In this document: piece after piece, positions 1 to 4,709 of the stretch | Layout of the letters: each line of letters begins with the position of its first letter | Position numbering within the stretch: position 1 is the first letter of the stretch | IMG/VR virus record: IMGVR_UViG_2690316142_000012 | Span: 1 to 4,709 of that record | Length of the DNA: 4,709 nucleotides | Direction: 5' to 3' (one strand) | Source of the DNA: a virus | Lineage: Duplodnaviria > Heunggongvirae > Uroviricota > Caudoviricetes | Translations under genes and position numbers: made by a program | Notes under the pieces: model-generated | Seen by the model: the letters and a program-made list of their open reading frames with translations, nothing else | The model's database searches: none | What the model was told of the DNA's origin: nothing

Positions 1-30
1 TCTTAAGTCCAAACGGACAGGAGATTTAAA

Positions 31-324
31 ATGAAATTCACTTCAACCACGAATCATGTTTTCACATTCGAACGAGTAACGCTTTGCACGATTGTTCTTA
101 TTCATAAGGATACGGGACAACAGTATGTTGTCATATTTACGGATAACAATAAAATTCGTGACTATAAGACCGGAATTGTTTCTCAGTTTGGTGAACTTAA
201 GCAGAGTGATATTGATTTAATTCTTTTCTATCGGGACGAATATGAAAAATATTTTGACTCGTTAAATAATGGCGAGGAGTATTTGAGTTTTAAAGAATAT
301 ATCGGATGTATAAGGGGAAAATAA
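31..324 (+). CDS. hypothetical small protein (97 aa), no recognisable domain
   Basis: ATG at 31 preceded by AGGAG at 19..23 (7-nt spacing); uninterrupted 97-codon ORF; AT-rich codon usage typical of horizontally acquired morons; followed by further small ORFs and a terminator at 562..590. Confidence 0.6.
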   Translation: MKFTSTTNHVFTFERVTLCTIVLIHKDTGQQYVVIFTDNNKIRDYKTGIVSQFGELKQSDIDLILFYRDEYEKYFDSLNNGEEYLSFKEYIGCIRGK

Positions 325-327
325 ATT

Positions 328-387
328 ATGAAAGGTGTGTTCAGGTTGCTGGAACAACCTGAACACGTTATCGACAATCAAAACTGA
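328..387 (+). CDS. possible micro-ORF (19 aa, MKGVFRLLEQPEHVIDNQN)
   Basis: ATG at 328 lies 9 nt after AAGGGGA (312..318), 3 nt after the stop of the 97-aa gene; too short for the ORF track; coding status uncertain. Confidence 0.2.
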   Translation: MKGVFRLLEQPEHVIDNQN

Positions 388-400
388 ATGAGGTTTTTAA

Positions 401-538
401 ATGTCAACACGACAGATCGTACAGCTTGCTGACTCCCTTGTCAAAGGCTGGGAAACCAGAATTCCGGCAATGACGTGCACGGAGTGGGATCAATTCCGGT
501 GGTGGTTAAACTACCTGCAAGGGTATGAAATGTTTTAA
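401..538 (+). CDS. possible small protein (45 aa, Trp-rich: MSTRQIVQLADSLVKGWETRIPAMTCTEWDQFRWWLNYLQGYEMF)
   Basis: ATG at 401 preceded by GAGG at 390..393 (about 8-nt spacing); ORF ends at TAA 536..538, 24 nt before an intrinsic terminator hairpin; below the ORF-track size cutoff. Confidence 0.35.
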   Translation: MSTRQIVQLADSLVKGWETRIPAMTCTEWDQFRWWLNYLQGYEMF

Positions 539-561
539 ATAACCGGGATAAATTCATATAT

Positions 562-590
562 GGGGAGAGTGTCATGCTCTCCCTTTCTTA
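562..590 (+). terminator. intrinsic terminator for the plus-strand small-gene operon
   Basis: Stem GGGAGAG (563..569) / CTCTCCC (577..583) with 7-nt loop, followed by TTTCTTATT. Confidence 0.55.
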
Positions 591-608
591 TTGGGTAGCG
601 AGTTGTAT

Positions 609-657
609 TACATATTTAGCTTTACGTTGTAAAGATTTTATTGTCTTTACAGTGTGG
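609..657. repeat. bipartite palindromic element, copy 1 (CTTTAC-GTT-GTAAAG at 620..634, then CTTTACAGTGTGG at 645..657); candidate operator
   Basis: Perfect 6-bp inverted arms with 3-bp spacer; second half-element starts 16 bp after the first element ends; same architecture at copies 2 and 3; shares ATTACATA..AGCTTTAC lead-in with copy 2. Confidence 0.7.
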
Positions 658-735
658 TGCGTTTTCCGGCGGTTGCGCTGCGCTTAGGGGTATGTGGCTT
701 CGATGATCCAGGGTATTTCGACGTAATGCGTTGTA

Positions 736-1179
736 TTACGATGTATACTCTTTAATTGCTTGCAATCTCTTTTCACGTTCGTTGCTTTGTTGGGCCTTTT
801 CCAGTTGGCTGTATATGTACTCTTCATCTTTACCCGTGAGTATTGAGCCGGAGAGCAGACGATTAATAACTATACGTTTAATTTCTGGGTAATCTTTGGT
901 TTTATCGAGTATGGACAATATGTGGTCACTGCTAAGAATTATCCCACTCCATGAGTCTAAATAGCTCTTAAAAATCACAATCATAAACACACCGAAAAGC
1001 ATTATGATGATTGTTACCACATTAATGCTAAACGTTGATATAAAGGTATACGCGGCCACACCAATTATTGCTAAACAGAGACATAAATAAATGAAACCGA
1101 TTTTGTTGCGTTGCTTTTTTTCTGCACGATCATGATCATCTATGATTTCCAGTATCTTTTCTGGGATTAGTTGAGTCAT
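736..1179 (-). CDS. small membrane protein (147 aa), two predicted transmembrane helices, ~77-aa soluble C-terminal domain; function unknown
   Basis: ATG at 1177..1179 (minus) preceded by AAGGAA with ~5-nt spacing; two hydrophobic stretches (IGFIYLCLCLAIIGVAAYTFI and VVTIIIMLFGVFMIVIF) separated by a short loop; charged N- and C-termini. Confidence 0.7.
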   Translation of the reverse strand: MTQLIPEKILEIIDDHDRAEKKQRNKIGFIYLCLCLAIIGVAAYTFISTFSINVVTIIIMLFGVFMIVIFKSYLDSWSGIILSSDHILSILDKTKDYPEIKRIVINRLLSGSILTGKDEEYIYSQLEKAQQSNEREKRLQAIKEYTS

Positions 1180-1211
1180 TTTCTTTCCTTATTTGGGACA
1201 CGGAGTGTTTA

Positions 1212-1260
1212 ATTACATAGCTTTACATTGTAAATCTATGTTTGTCTTTACGATGTAAAT
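1212..1260. repeat. bipartite palindromic element, copy 2 (CTTTAC-ATT-GTAAAT at 1221..1235, CTTTAC-GAT-GTAAAT at 1246..1260); candidate operator over the membrane-gene promoter/leader
   Basis: Same 16-bp spacing between elements as copies 1 and 3; sits between the membrane-protein start codon (1179) and a candidate minus-strand promoter. Confidence 0.7.
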
Positions 1261-1287
1261 GATGAGATGTGCAGTTAAAAGTGTCAA
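1259..1287 (-). promoter_or_regulatory. candidate sigma70 promoter for the membrane-protein gene
   Basis: On the minus strand: perfect -35 TTGACA (plus 1282..1287), 17-bp spacer, -10 CATCAT (plus 1259..1264); the transcript would start inside repeat copy 2. Confidence 0.3.
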
Positions 1288-1359
1288 TCAGATATCATAT
1301 AGTAAAATACTATATTATTTTCTATGTATCACATACACAGCGATAAAACTGGATAAATG

Positions 1360-1397
1360 ACTTACACTGTAAAGATTGAGCTGTCTTTACAGTGTGG
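1360..1397. repeat. bipartite palindromic element, copy 3 (ACTTAC-ACT-GTAAAG at 1360..1374, CTTTACAGTGTGG at 1385..1397); upstream of the hicA promoter
   Basis: Second half identical to that of copy 1 (CTTTACAGTGTGG); same 16-bp spacing. Confidence 0.65.
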
Positions 1398-1423
1398 TTC
1401 ATAAGGCATACGAATGAAATAAT

Positions 1424-1452
1424 TTGCCTTTGTGTGTATGCGTGTGTATAAT
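1424..1452 (+). promoter_or_regulatory. candidate sigma70 promoter of hicAB
   Basis: -35 TTGCCT (1424..1429), 17-bp spacer, consensus -10 TATAAT (1447..1452), about 24 nt upstream of the hicA ATG; spacer is an alternating purine-pyrimidine tract (TGTGTGTATGCGTGTG). Confidence 0.5.
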
Positions 1453-1475
1453 TATCCTCAGGTTAGGGAGGACAT

Positions 1476-1658
1476 ATGAAATCTGCTGACCTGTTGAAAG
1501 AACTGATAGCTGCTGGTTGCGAGTTGAAACGGCATAAGGCAAGCAGTCACCAGATATGGTGGTCGCCAATAACAGGAAAAACTTTTCCTGTTCCTCATCC
1601 TAAAAAGGACTTGCCGCTAGGTACTGTCAGATCGATCAAAAAAATGGCGGGGATTTAA
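1476..1658 (+). CDS. hicA: HicA-family type II toxin (mRNA interferase), 60 aa
   Basis: GGGAGG RBS 4 nt upstream of ATG; protein has HicA hallmarks: small size, a His-containing segment (SSHQIW) and the characteristic C-terminal PHPKKDLPLGTVRSIKKMAG motif; immediately followed by a HicB-like gene. Confidence 0.9.
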   Translation: MKSADLLKELIAAGCELKRHKASSHQIWWSPITGKTFPVPHPKKDLPLGTVRSIKKMAGI

Positions 1659-1666
1659 TCCCCGCC
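1646..1666 (+). other. perfect 9-bp stem hairpin spanning the hicA stop codon (GGCGGGGAT-tta-ATCCCCGCC)
   Basis: Inverted repeat read directly; hicA TAA stop (1656..1658) sits in the loop; no T-run follows, so not a simple terminator; 7 nt upstream of the hicB RBS. Confidence 0.5.
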
Positions 1667-1682
1667 GACTTTGGAGGTAGCC

Positions 1683-2120
1683 ATGTTCTTTTCTGTTGGT
1701 GTCGAAACACCGAAAGATGATCATACAGCATACGGTATCACCGTTCCGGTTTTTGATTGCTTTGATTTTGGATGTGTTTCTGCTGCTGATTCTCAGGCAG
1801 AAATACCCGCAATGGCGCGTGAAGCGATATTGGCAATCGTGGAAGAGATGGTAATAAGCGGTGCTCATTCTGTTGATGATATTCATGATGAAGGGTGTTT
1901 GACTTATTCCGCCAACCCAAATTATAACCACTGTGATAGCTGGTTTGTAATTGATGTTGATTTGTCAGAAATTGAGGGCAAACAACAACGTATTAATATT
2001 TCATTGCCTGATGTATTGATTCGTCGTATTGATGGATATGTGAGAGAAAGTGGTGGCGTATACAAAGATCGTAGCCATTTTCTGGCTCAGGCGGCACGTC
2101 ATGAACTTGCATATAAATAA
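1683..2120 (+). CDS. hicB: HicB-family type II antitoxin (145 aa) with C-terminal ribbon-helix-helix DNA-binding domain
   Basis: ATG at 1683 with GGAGG (1673..1677) 5 nt upstream (ORF track extends to a TTG at 1671); N-terminal HicB-like region and C-terminal RINISLPDVLIRRIDGYV...RSHFLAQAARHEL typical of RHH (CopG-like) domains; directly downstream of hicA. Confidence 0.85.
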   Translation: MFFSVGVETPKDDHTAYGITVPVFDCFDFGCVSAADSQAEIPAMAREAILAIVEEMVISGAHSVDDIHDEGCLTYSANPNYNHCDSWFVIDVDLSEIEGKQQRINISLPDVLIRRIDGYVRESGGVYKDRSHFLAQAARHELAYK

Positions 2121-2124
2121 AACT

Positions 2125-2152
2125 ATCCCCGCGTTGTGCGGGGATTTTTTTT
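2125..2152 (+). terminator. strong intrinsic terminator after hicB, probably bidirectional
   Basis: Perfect 8-bp GC-rich stem ATCCCCGC (2125..2132) / GCGGGGAT (2138..2145), 5-nt loop, then T8 (2145..2152); on the minus strand the same hairpin is followed by AGTTTTATTTAT, so it may also end the convergent minus-strand operon. Confidence 0.8.
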
Positions 2153-2159
2153 GATAGCT

Positions 2160-2221
2160 AACCGCTCGCCGCAGTCCAGCGACCGAGCATAGCGAGCGAG
2201 TGACGAGGAAGCGGAAGATCC
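2160..2221. other. segment resembling ColE1/pMB1-type plasmid backbone sequence (origin-proximal region of pBR322/pUC)
   Basis: From memory of the pUC/pBR322 sequence (ACCGCTCGCCGCAGCCGAACGACCGAGCGCAGCGAGTCAGTGAGCGAGGAAGCGGAAGA): the window has ACCGCTCGCCGCAG..CGACCGAGC..AGCGAG..CGAGGAAGCGGAAGA in the same order; roughly 80-85 percent identity by eye, not computed. Confidence 0.45.
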
Positions 2222-2250
2222 ACCGTTGCCAGGAGAAAAGCAGGTACGCA

Positions 2251-2571
2251 CTATGCGTTCTGCCCTAGTGATGCTTTCACAAACCACGCAGCCTGAACTA
2301 TTACGCCATGAATCCAGCGCAAATCGGCATCACGATTTTCTTTTTTCATTTTTTCGCCACTTAAAGCCTTGCTTACGTGACTTTTTACCAGATTTTCGTG
2401 TAATTCTTTTGCTTCTTCAATTGTGAAACCACCAGGCAAATTTGGCGCTTCTGCTTCCAGCGATGCCAGTGCGATTTCATAAGCCCGACGCTCAATATTG
2501 TCTCGGACGTCCAGGCTGCCTATACGCTCTCTGATTTCTTTAATCAGTTCTTTGTCGGTTAAAGTGGTCAT
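2251..2571 (-). CDS. hypothetical prophage early-region protein (106 aa); N-terminal module shared with the 136-aa protein
   Basis: ATG overlaps the stop of the upstream 171-aa gene (ATGA); AAGGAA RBS 7 nt upstream; shares the motif IALASLEAEA and a 19-nt nucleotide identity with gene 3385..3795. Confidence 0.7.
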   Translation of the reverse strand: MTTLTDKELIKEIRERIGSLDVRDNIERRAYEIALASLEAEAPNLPGGFTIEEAKELHENLVKSHVSKALSGEKMKKENRDADLRWIHGVIVQAAWFVKASLGQNA

Positions 2572-3083
2572 GCTGCGTTTCCTTCTTTCTTATTAACAAT
2601 TACACCGTCATATATTTCATTAAGGTGTCCTCTTAGCTCCATGCGCCTTAATGCAGATAACATGTAATCGCATTCAACCTGCTTATTCCCAGTAAATGGC
2701 TTATCGTCAGGATTACCCCAACAGCAATTACCCCTGGGCCATCCATGTACTTTCCGTACTCTTCCGTTAACAACGTGAAGTAATCCCCAGCCGGGAGGTA
2801 AATCCTCAACTGAAATAATTTCCGGCTCACTAATAAAGAATCGCCAGTCGCCCATGCCAAGTGAGGGATTTTTACGGAAACGCTTTTTTCTATCTGCCAA
2901 CAAGTCAGCACGAGAACACTTCGCCTCTATCAGGCATGATGCTGAATTTCTGAATCCCATAGCATCTGGCTGTTCTCCGGTACTGGTTACAGCAACAAAG
3001 CGGTCATGAAAGCAAACCTTGAACCCGTTGCGCTTAAGGAACTTGTACGCAATCTGACAGAGTTCGTGGTGTGTTAACGCCAT
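2568..3083 (-). CDS. PD-(D/E)xK nuclease-like protein (171 aa), possibly MmcB-like; tentative
   Basis: Start at ATG 3081..3083 (MALTHHELCQ) preceded by GGGAAAGGAAAGTGAT; motif order E...PD(AMGF)...(L)IEAK(CS) matches the PD-(D/E)xK nuclease core; the ORF-track N-terminal extension (MGKESD) is probably not translated. Confidence 0.7.
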   Translation of the reverse strand: MALTHHELCQIAYKFLKRNGFKVCFHDRFVAVTSTGEQPDAMGFRNSASCLIEAKCSRADLLADRKKRFRKNPSLGMGDWRFFISEPEIISVEDLPPGWGLLHVVNGRVRKVHGWPRGNCCWGNPDDKPFTGNKQVECDYMLSALRRMELRGHLNEIYDGVIVNKKEGNAA

Positions 3084-3119
3084 ATCACTTTCCTTTCCCA
3101 TGTTGTCATGTGTTAGTCC

Positions 3120-3383
3120 TTATCCTGCTGTGCTTTCAACTGATGAGGGGAATAAAATCTTTTCATCAAATCCGGCATTCATATCATGGACAGCAACACA
3201 CCAATCCATCGACGAACGATTATCAAGAGCCTCCATGATTTCATCCATGCGGCGCAGGTCATACAGGTAAATGCTTTTATCGCCAATGGTGTAAAAACCA
3301 ATTTTTTTCGGTGATGGGCAGCGATCAAGAACGTCCTGTAATTCGTTCAACCATGCCCGTTCTTTTTTTGTTAAAGTTGCCAT
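3120..3383 (-). CDS. hypothetical prophage early-region protein (87 aa)
   Basis: Start at ATG 3381..3383 (MATLTKKERAW) preceded by AAAGGAGAGTGAT; the upstream gene's stop lies 1 nt before this ATG (TGA-T-ATG); the longer ORF in the track is an out-of-frame read-through of the upstream gene's 3' end. Confidence 0.7.
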   Translation of the reverse strand: MATLTKKERAWLNELQDVLDRCPSPKKIGFYTIGDKSIYLYDLRRMDEIMEALDNRSSMDWCVAVHDMNAGFDEKILFPSSVESTAG

Positions 3384-3396
3384 ATCACTCTCCTTT
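3242..3396. repeat. 155-bp exact direct repeat, copy 1 (identical to 4555..4709)
   Basis: Base-by-base identity read from the sequence; covers the RBS and first 47 codons of the 87-aa gene; left boundary is sharp (3241 T versus 4554 A). Confidence 0.95.
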
Positions 3397-3795
3397 CCCA
3401 TGAAGCATAGCGGCGCGGCAGGCGTTCCAGCCTGTAGCGTATGCAGCCGCTTTGCTGCTGCCTTCAACTGGCGCATCCTGCCAATACATTTCATCCGGCA
3501 CTACCGGCGCTGGCAAGGCTGCGTGATAGTAGAGTGGCATAGTTTTGTACAGTGGTTCGCCAGGACTTCCGTCAACCTGATTCCATTCTTCAACCCAGGC
3601 ATCAACAACCGCTTTGCTGGTTGATACATGTTCTTCTGAATCTACATTTTGTCCTGATATACAGAACATAACTGCCTCTGCTTCCAGCGATGCCAGAGCA
3701 ATTCGTGCCAGTTCCATTTGTTCGCCACGAGTAAGTCCGTTATCAAGCGGATTTTTAATGAATAATTTGATACGTTCTTTGGTTATAGCGTTCAT
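3385..3795 (-). CDS. hypothetical prophage early-region protein (136 aa); N-terminal module shared with the 106-aa protein
   Basis: Start at ATG 3793..3795 (MNAITKERIK) preceded by AAGGAGAGTGAG; the upstream 203-aa gene's stop lies 1 nt before it (TGA-G-ATG); contains ELARIALASLEAEA. Confidence 0.7.
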   Translation of the reverse strand: MNAITKERIKLFIKNPLDNGLTRGEQMELARIALASLEAEAVMFCISGQNVDSEEHVSTSKAVVDAWVEEWNQVDGSPGEPLYKTMPLYYHAALPAPVVPDEMYWQDAPVEGSSKAAAYATGWNACRAAMLHGKGE

Positions 3796-3796
3796 C

Positions 3797-4408
3797 TCAC
3801 TCTCCTTTGATGCGAATGCCAGTAGCGCGGATTGCATCGATGACTTCAGAAACTTTGTATGCCATTACCGTTTGGTAATCATCGTGAAAATCTGTTCGAT
3901 GAAGCATGCTGCTACGTTCCGGGAGCGATATTTCCCGAGCATCCAGTTCCTTAACGCGCTCCTCCAGTTCGTAGACCCTGCATTGTTCTCTATCATCAAT
4001 CAGATATAACCCAAGACATTCGCTTTCTACCCAACCGCCAAAATCATGATCGTAACGCTCACATGAAAACTCACCGTCACCGTCCTTTGTTGGAATGGTG
4101 TAACTATCTAATGGGCCACCATATGTCGGCACATTTCCCAATGTTGGATGCTCAATCCACATGAAAAATGCACGTCCGGTTATTGGGCAAATATCTGGCC
4201 GCCATTGGTTACGAACAGCCTTGGTTTCGGATAATTCTTCAGCGTGTTGTTTTACTTCCTCAAGCTCGTATCGCTTCAGGTTTGCGATATTTGATAAATT
4301 CAGCGCCAGTACAGCCAGGTCATAAACCTCTTCGGCAGTGACATCGCTGTTCAGTCCCATTTCATGGCGATATATGATTTTTTCTACTCGTTGTTTTGTG
4401 ATCGTCAT
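3797..4408 (-). CDS. hypothetical prophage early-region protein (203 aa); possibly ead/Ea22-like, unverified
   Basis: Longest ORF in the operon; preferred start ATG at 4406..4408 (MTITKQRVEK) with GGAG 11 nt upstream; ORF track extends to a TTG at 4432; ends KGE-stop within the RBS of the next gene. Confidence 0.65.
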   Translation of the reverse strand: MTITKQRVEKIIYRHEMGLNSDVTAEEVYDLAVLALNLSNIANLKRYELEEVKQHAEELSETKAVRNQWRPDICPITGRAFFMWIEHPTLGNVPTYGGPLDSYTIPTKDGDGEFSCERYDHDFGGWVESECLGLYLIDDREQCRVYELEERVKELDAREISLPERSSMLHRTDFHDDYQTVMAYKVSEVIDAIRATGIRIKGE

Positions 4409-4516
4409 TTTTCTCTTCACTCCGATATACAAGGATTACCACACCCCCTCTGCTGATTGCGCGAGCTGGATCCCCTGGTTCCATGCCGTCAATTCCGAAG
4501 GCTTCGGAAAACGCAT

Positions 4517-4696
4517 TCATTGCCTTCTGGCGTTCATCCTGCTTACGGCGTTTACATCCATGCGGCGCAGGTCATACAGGTAAATGCTTTTATCGCCAAT
4601 GGTGTAAAAACCAATTTTTTTCGGTGATGGGCAGCGATCAAGAACGTCCTGTAATTCGTTCAACCATGCCCGTTCTTTTTTTGTTAAAGTTGCCAT
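4517..4696 (-). pseudogene. truncated chimeric duplicate of the 87-aa gene (first 47 codons identical, then 12 unrelated codons and a stop; 59 aa)
   Basis: Lies in copy 2 of the 155-bp repeat; translation from ATG 4694..4696 gives MATLTKKERAWLNELQDVLDRCPSPKKIGFYTIGDKSIYLYDLRRMD then VNAVSRMNARRQ-stop; the preceding 4698..4709 encodes a KGE-stop gene end as at 3385 and 3797. Confidence 0.4.
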
Positions 4697-4709
4697 ATCA
4701 CTCTCCTTT
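4555..4709. repeat. 155-bp exact direct repeat, copy 2 (identical to 3242..3396); continues to the window edge
   Basis: Offset of exactly 1313 bp from copy 1; true extent unknown because the window ends. Confidence 0.95.

Follow-up and report, generated by a model that had tools for sequence, protein, structure and literature searches.

How do two small genes whose products align over only ten residues come to share an identical run of DNA at the same place in their reading frames? The question is raised by genes A and D of a tightly packed minus-strand array in IMG/VR record IMGVR_UViG_2690316142_000012, of which positions 1 to 4,709 are analysed here as one stretch of 4,709 nucleotides (nt; hereafter the window). 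The initial annotation had read the two products as early-operon proteins that carry a common N-terminal module of about 40 residues and unrelated C-termini, in a pattern of paralogous domain swapping. We hold it to be quite probable that A and D belong to a large family of small, combinatorially mosaic proteins, in which a block encoding IALASLEAE[A/P] is the in-frame joint where N-terminal parts (heads) and C-terminal parts (bodies) reassort, presumably by homologous recombination, and in which the head would carry a common function. The two genes, whose products have 106 and 136 amino acids (aa), and their joint blocks are as follows.

2251..2571, minus strand: gene A, 106 aa; head subtype 'A' (MTTLTDKELIKEIRERIGSLDVRDNIERRAYE), joint IALASLEAEA, body PNLPGGFTIEEAKELHENLV...ASLGQNA
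2447..2476, minus strand: 30-nt joint block of gene A; matches 3674-3703 at 27/30 positions and contains the exact 20-mer (2450-2469); codes for IALASLEAEA
3385..3795, minus strand: gene D, 136 aa; head subtype 'D' (MNAITKERIKLFIKNPLDNGLTRGEQMELAR), joint IALASLEAEA, body VMFCISGQNVD...PAPVVPDE...GWNACRAAMLHGKGE
3674..3703, minus strand: joint block of gene D, with the exact 20-mer at 3677-3696

The shared run, TCTGCTTCCAGCGATGCCAG, occurs exactly twice in the window, at 2450-2469 and 3677-3696, and no such match arose by chance in 200 dinucleotide-preserving shuffles. It had been annotated as a 19-mer, whose first copy does lie at 2451-2469 and whose second copy lies at 3678-3696, one base from the position given. 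With the flanks included, 27 of 30 positions are identical between 2447-2476 and 3674-3703 (repeat D5), and the two copies form direct repeats 1227 nt apart. Read on the minus strand, the 20-nt run encodes L-A-S-L-E-A-E within IALASLEAEA, which occupies residues 33-42 of the gene A product and residues 32-41 of the gene D product. BLASTP of A against D gave an alignment limited to these 10 residues (10/10, E=0.004), and the C-terminal parts of the two proteins proved as unrelated as the initial annotation had stated (local alignment score 19 versus a shuffle mean of 22.9, p=0.89). The start of gene D was placed at 3795, and not at that of a longer open reading frame (ORF) from 3837, since an identical 136-aa protein (P0121) occurs on at least 1000 contigs; the assignment is also backed by the ribosome-binding context AAAGGAGAGTGAGATG.

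Whether the two heads are related depends on the level at which they are compared. Pairwise, the 31-32 residues that precede the motif reach a score of 18, where shuffled sequences average 18.4 (p=0.53), and the DNA of A and D outside the 30-nt block gave no alignment. At the profile level, gene A matches phrog_5117, 660, 60 and 3323 over residues 1-47 (E from 3e-19 to 3e-11), and gene D matches the same PHROG profiles over its first ~47 residues (E from 5e-22 to 7e-13). The pre-motif head of A also scored 13.9 bits against a profile built only from non-A head subtypes, a value reached by 0 of 5000 shuffled decoys (mean 1.1 ± 1.8 bits). The features conserved among heads are an N-terminal helix (M-T-T-[ILF]-T-[KD]-[EK]-x-[LI]...), a variable loop followed by a second helix, and the joint peptide. 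The A and D heads are thus different subtypes of one head family of about 40 residues, related at the profile level only: the shared module that had been annotated holds as a family of profiles, whereas between the two proteins themselves similarity is confined to the shared run. Because the pre-motif residues resemble each other no more than shuffled sequence does and the DNA is unalignable, A and D are not recent local paralogues. The swapping of heads and bodies is real, as shown below, but the local paralogy that had been coupled with it finds no pairwise similarity beyond the 10-residue motif.

From its sequence, a member of the family consists of about 31 variable head residues, the nearly invariant IALASLEAE[A/P], and an interchangeable body that continues in frame. 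The exact 20-mer was found in at least 119 IMG/VR contigs. When the flanks of each exact 20-mer in the collected loci (93 nt upstream, 90 nt downstream) were clustered, the 184 occurrences fell into 12 upstream classes and 25 downstream classes joined in 60 combinations, counts that attest the existence of combinations and not their frequency. (An earlier single-linkage clustering of bodies merged most of them through common linkers and DUF551, and was replaced by these classes on joint-flanking sequence.) By DNA class, 15 body classes follow the D-type head and 10 the A-type head; in the protein table the two head types have at least 13 body types in common, and at least 10 head types precede the D body and at least seven the A body. 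A search for other proteins with the same N-terminal module likewise found the same heads on many different bodies. In loci recovered with the head profile, a nearly identical D-type head is joined, directly after IALASLEAE[A/P], to more than 12 unrelated continuations, and the D body also follows heads of the Ead_Ea22 type (PF13935), with the junction again at ...LEAEA|VMFCIS. The phase in which bodies begin right after EAE[A/P] is the same for more than 25 classes, and the length of the joint is constant.

Both halves also have an independent existence. A stand-alone head protein of 55 aa (the 'EaA' form) makes up 31 of the 103 head-bearing genes that were found. An exhaustive search was made with a profile of 122 positions that spans the columns of the head and of A's body, and that separates head-only, body-only and combined matches without giving a clean count of heads; among its 591 cluster representatives (E≤1e-3) the head and A's body each also occur alone in other proteins, A's body at internal positions. 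A search with a 47-residue head profile returned short, mostly partial proteins only. Body segments are themselves joined at more linkers, namely PLYxAPPxPVVP[D/E], GWNACRAAML, GN[S/Y]PVTPDGWISCSERMP (the start of DUF551) and the terminal KGE-stop. Thus a 184-aa protein that is a 99% identical relative of A (P0241) has an added DUF551 tail, a 233-aa relative of D (P0123, 97%) is extended by DUF551, and two further proteins (P0183, P0157) have an Ead_Ea22 domain in place of D's head; the relatives that carry PF13935 (P0140, P0143, P0183) have only the body in common with D. DUF551 is present in 12 of 22 family representatives from related loci, and a DUF550 dATP/dGTP pyrophosphohydrolase domain (PF04447) forms one of the bodies that follow the D-type head.

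Natural chimeras place the point of exchange on the block. The 146-aa 'Ea22 protein' of phage vB_EcoS-689R5 is ~91% identical in DNA to gene A before the block and ~100% identical to gene D after it. The reciprocal chimera, a 105-aa protein (P0264) with a D-type head on an A-type body, is found in a Salmonella IncI2-like plasmid (L088), in the order gene C, chimera, HicBA. The two neighbours named in that order have these counterparts in the window.

3120..3383, minus strand: gene C, 87 aa; a cassette between the joint-bearing genes, without head module; phrog_1714, E=1e-50
1476-2120, plus strand: complete hicA-hicB pair (HicA toxin / HicB antitoxin), convergent with the array

In L088 the BLAST segments that end at window position 2475 and begin at window position 3674 overlap exactly on the 30-nt block. 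This structure is what a deletion between direct repeats would leave in an ancestor with gene C directly before a D-headed gene, an order that is present in phage L002.

The same joint delimits differences among close relatives. At the locus just upstream of gene C, closely related IncI2 plasmids whose flanks are 98-99.9% identical carry three alleles: a D head on a D body in the window, an A-type head on a D body in pHN1122-1, E28 p5 and pE200177_59, and another head on another body in pEc42_3. In the three plasmids of the second kind, homology to the window stops at 3703, the first base of the block, and past this point the sequence is like that of the gene A head (window 2447-2571, 88-94% identity). 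Judged from these comparisons, the 20-30 nt block is the only DNA common to otherwise unalignable heads and bodies, and it is the point at which they reassort: both reciprocal chimeras occur in nature, and the breakpoints in sister plasmids fall on it. Further cassettes were observed at the same position in sister plasmids (L088 3234-3725, L001 11288-11737, L083 9123-9545); one is a 163-aa protein with the ending TGIRIKGE, that of gene E of the window, and the others are head/body pairs unlike those of the window.

The D-type head can be traced to its source by comparison with these plasmids and with prophage DNA. At the DNA level the window matches best to IncI2 conjugative plasmids (~60 kb; hosts E. 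coli, Shigella, Salmonella and Klebsiella), and no single record covers more than 81% of it; pEc42_3 is 99.9% identical over window 1-3396, and pHN1122-1 is typed as IncI2 / MOBP / MPF_T. The window most likely derives from an IncI2 conjugative plasmid, beside the region of the origin of transfer (oriT) and the relaxase. Parts of the array are also found in Shiga toxin (Stx) and other lambdoid prophages and in phage P7, and the family as a whole is at home in the early exo-xis/ea region of lambdoid prophages and in IncI2 plasmids beside oriT/relaxase. The term early operon used in the initial annotation therefore suits the phage relatives, whereas the matches of the window are to IncI2 plasmids. 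Compared with pEc42_3, it holds 1155 extra bases (3397-4551), bounded by a direct repeat of 158 nt (3239-3396 and 4552-4709, 99% identical) that equals the first 158 nt of gene C. A prophage-like IMG/VR contig (L003) is 99% identical to window 3102-4267 and 100% identical to 4260-4554. Since the extra segment is absent from pEc42_3 and 99-100% identical to prophage-like DNA, the D-type head, gene E and the remnant of a DUF4752 gene that lies in it arrived by exchange with prophage-type DNA, and not by local duplication of gene A.

We suggest that exchange runs by homologous recombination across the short identical block, with RecA, or Red/RecET-type functions encoded adjacent in lambdoid phages, as the likely agents. 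Deletions could arise as well, given that the window carries its two copies as direct repeats 1227 nt apart. The conserved peptide would be kept because it is part of the head, and the head would supply a function common to different bodies, for example self-association or docking on a shared partner, while the bodies would supply differing activities (DUF551, MazG-like dATP/dGTP pyrophosphohydrolase (DUF550) and Ea22-type parts). AlphaFold2 models of both proteins place helix 1 at about residues 6-14/19 and a helix 2 (23-37 in D, 26-39 in A) that reaches into the motif and ends before its last residues. The fold of the head may accordingly be a helix-loop-helix, a tentative assignment given the low confidence of the models (mean predicted local distance difference test, pLDDT, of 53.5 for D and 67.7 for A). 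Both models are too weak for a fold assignment: the A model, searched with Foldseek against PDB and BFVD, had no match with E below about 1, and the A and D sequences matched nothing below E=0.3 among solved structures.

Several points weigh against this reading. A common function of the head is conjectural, the models being of low confidence and the fold searches without a match. The samples of occurrences and of proteins were gathered with window sequences as bait, so that the counts given above speak to which combinations exist. For RecA to recombine efficiently, an identity of 20-30 nt is short. Within the motif, members of the family often differ by synonymous codons (GCG/GCA/GCT, TCG/TCA, GAA/GAG, CCG/CCT/CCA), and so there is no sign of DNA conservation beyond what the protein needs; a DNA-level constraint on the run over and above the peptide was considered and found unsupported for this reason. 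Finally, breakpoints on a conserved block would also be expected if selection filtered random joints at a domain boundary.

This last point is the core of an explanation by selection alone, in which the motif is kept as the functional end of the head, joints form illegitimately and at random, and only those that are in frame at the boundary survive (a Hendrix-type model), the identity of the DNA having no part in the mechanism. The synonymous variation just described, with no constraint on the DNA beyond the protein, is what such a model would predict, and helix 2 is predicted to end at the joint, where a boundary between domains would be natural. Yet random joints should leave insertions and deletions, whereas more than 25 body classes follow EAE[A/P] in the same phase with no variation in length; and in sister plasmids with flanks 98-99.9% identical the exchanges stop exactly on the block, which fits recent homologous events. 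Given the constant phase and the recent exchanges in near-identical plasmids, selection alone fits less well than homologous exchange, and we regard it as unlikely.

Two other accounts of the shared run are far less probable. If A and D had arisen by duplication within the operon, with a common N-terminal domain of ~40 residues kept and the C-termini replaced, they would be expected to lie in the same operon and orientation with heads alike in length and position, as they do, and their PHROG matches in common would also be explained. Such an origin is nevertheless very improbable: the pre-motif residues are at shuffle level (p=0.53) with DNA unalignable outside 30 nt, each head subtype occurs elsewhere on many bodies, and the D head belongs to the segment that pEc42_3 lacks and that a prophage-like contig matches at 99-100% identity. 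That the exact 20-mer recurs in at least 119 viral contigs whose surroundings are otherwise unrelated could instead point to a cis-acting nucleic-acid signal and not mainly to a protein motif, for example a site recognised by a site-specific recombinase or a nuclease, or an RNA regulatory element. We find this scarcely credible, as the motif is always in frame at one position in the protein, and synonymous changes in the DNA leave the peptide intact. No Rfam match was found, the repeat search showed no inverted repeat of recombinase-site type within or around the block, and the block read by eye contains no Chi sequence.

Exchange at the joint by homologous recombination, our preferred reading, may be one part of a wider arrangement. 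It is conceivable, but in our view doubtful, that the head and joint, the linkers (PLYxAPPxPVVP[D/E], GWNACRAAML, GN[S/Y]PVTPDGW) and the KGE-stop/ribosome-binding-site boundary together make up a dedicated scheme of in-frame cassette exchange, by which temperate phages and conjugative plasmids would diversify shared entry-phase effectors (for example in counter-defence or host takeover), with the head as an adaptor to one host target. The scheme is drawn by analogy with polymorphic toxins, C-terminal parts being swapped in both. In those toxins, C-terminal domains are exchanged at the VENN motif (CdiA) or at the PxxxxDPxGL motif (Rhs), and a short invariant peptide and DNA motif similarly borders the variable parts and coincides with recombination breakpoints. 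In contrast to the toxins, the family has no evident secretion apparatus, toxin or immunity pair, its proteins are of 55-330 residues, and variability lies on both flanks of the motif, the heads varying too.

Closer relatives are found among known phage genes. Variants of Ea22 have been described as a block mosaic in which the N-terminal part is common, the C-terminal domains are unrelated and DUF551 is portable (PMC10834534), and Ea22 proteins have a common K/RGE ending (PMC7093339). Ea22 and the Ead/Ea22-like proteins (PF13935 / IPR025153) of the exo-xis region of lambda and Stx phages are, like the family studied here, small, block-mosaic proteins of the early region of lambdoid phages. The correspondence extends to parts, with D's body found directly behind Ead_Ea22 heads, the body of gene E 98.7% identical to P7 upf88.3, and D and E both ending in KGE (A does not). 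Unlike in those proteins, the head in the window is a different, shorter module, and the window is most likely plasmid rather than phage. Prophage proteins with DUF551 (PF04448) or DUF550 (PF04447) are related in a similar manner: near-identical relatives of A and D run on into DUF551, and DUF550 is one body behind the D-type head, but the window copies end before DUF551 and contain no Pfam domain at all. The window proteins are thus not Pfam Ead_Ea22 or DUF551 members, and they swap parts with both. Since mosaicism of the Ea22 type is already published, the window represents a further instance of known gene mosaicism and not a new system.

A precedent for the role of the joint exists at the level of whole genes. 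Susskind and Botstein are said to have proposed that lambdoid phages evolve by exchange of modules through short conserved boundary or 'linker' sequences. Boundary sequences are reported for HK620/HK97-type phages. As in that model, short conserved stretches flank exchangeable modules, and exchange would take place between co-infecting or resident prophages; the linker in the window differs in that it is internal to a gene and forms a conserved peptide in its own right, the units exchanged are domains and not whole genes, and the exchange reaches conjugative plasmids. The locus thereby offers an example, at the nucleotide level, of small early genes rebuilt from domain-sized cassettes at short in-frame joints, and of one pool of cassettes common to lambdoid prophages, P1/P7-type phages and IncI2 resistance plasmids. 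Were the head a common adaptor, a single interaction could give access to the function of dozens of uncharacterised proteins of the exo-xis/ea region. For annotation, the head of ~40 residues with its joint is a recognisable unit, for which Pfam and NCBIfam hold no entry; in a limited literature search no description of the head, of the joint or of their occurrence in IncI2 plasmids was found. Labels such as 'phage tail protein', 'minor tail protein' and 'dTDP-6-deoxy-L-hexose 3-O-methyltransferase', carried by relatives in public records, have no backing Pfam or NCBIfam match for the window proteins.

The array that holds genes A, C and D occupies the minus strand from 2251 to 4709 and is transcribed in the order truncated C copy, DUF4752 remnant, E, D, C, B, A. 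Its remaining features are the following.

2125-2145: bidirectional terminator-like hairpin at the array end, common to the array and hicA-hicB
2568..3083, minus strand: gene B, 171 aa; a cassette between the joint-bearing genes, without head module; phrog_9263, E=1e-120
3379..3402, minus strand: conserved 3' gene boundary, ...HGKGE-stop; AAAGGAGAGTGA, which holds the final codons of gene D and at once serves gene C as its ribosome-binding site
3797..4408, minus strand: gene E, 203 aa; a third, diverged head (MTITKQRVEKIIYRHEMGLNSDVTAEEVYDLAV-LALNLSNIAN) and an Ead/Ea22-like body ending in IKGE
4362-4520, minus strand: DUF4752 remnant, the C-terminal part of a DUF4752 protein (PF15944, E=6e-11)
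4517-4696, minus strand: ORF of a truncated second gene C, the 5' part of gene C joined out of context to the DUF4752 remnant

In Pfam and NCBIfam scans of all window proteins only HicA, HicB and the DUF4752 remnant were recognised, and A-E had no match. In the Pfam scan A, D and E did not match PF13935 even at E<0.1, and no window protein matched PF04448 (DUF551). Gene E resembles the two joint-bearing genes in its composition. Its pre-motif segment is similar to that of D (p=0.0017), its residues 1-55 give weak PHROG matches (phrog_3323 at 2.4e-4, phrog_60 at 9e-3), and it is a chimera too, of the head of a 104-aa protein and an Ead/Ea22-like body with a junction near ...LKRYEL: bases 3793-4267 are those 98.7% identical to P7 upf88.3, which is annotated 'ead/Ea22-like', and bases 4260-4408 match the head of the 104-aa protein in the prophage-like contig L003 and in L008.

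KGE-stop boundaries similar to that at 3379..3402 were found at 3079-3102, 3775-3808 and 4676-4709 (repeats D3, D6). An orphan copy of the boundary (...HGKGK-stop, in a different frame) lies upstream of gene B and looks like the remnant of a deleted D-like gene. Several sister IncI2 plasmids (L001, L084, L085) carry gene B with a frameshift or a partial deletion; the gene gave a faint match to phrog_5429 'DNA repair protein' (E=0.005).

The position of the array relative to the transfer genes was examined in related plasmids. In pHN1122-1 (IncI2, MOBP) it lies 1.8-3.5 kb from a divergent mobC-relaxase operon, and in L088 the same genes come after a NikA-like/MobC gene; in both, the array is part of a minus-strand gene row divergent from the mobC/NikA-like-relaxase operon. 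The term leading region usually denotes the part beyond oriT as seen from the relaxase (PMC11541004). The array would therefore lie on the leading-region side of the presumed oriT. If the relaxase gene enters the recipient last, the transferred strand would be the minus strand of the window, which is the sense strand of A-E, and transcription would run away from oriT. Because A-E would be sense on the transferred strand, they should not be transcribed from the incoming single-stranded DNA, and their orientation is thus not that sought in leading-region genes. The plus-strand hicAB pair would have the orientation expected for transcription from the incoming single strand. A literature search on the IncI2 leading region, judged by titles, returned no title on the topic.

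The non-coding sequence that follows gene A (2146-2255) was considered as a single-strand initiation or primosome site and rejected, as the single-stranded DNA gave a fold z of about -1 on both strands and no Rfam match; the candidate had come from what we took to be a resemblance to ColE1-type sequence near a primosome assembly site, and it was unsupported on testing. Upstream of hicA, an element of ~48 nt is present in three copies that are 60-75% identical (608-655, 1209-1256 and 1348-1395). The copies hold CTTTACA / TGTAAAG inverted repeats and flank a gene for a 147-aa membrane protein (736-1179, minus strand), and they could be candidate operators or other binding sites.

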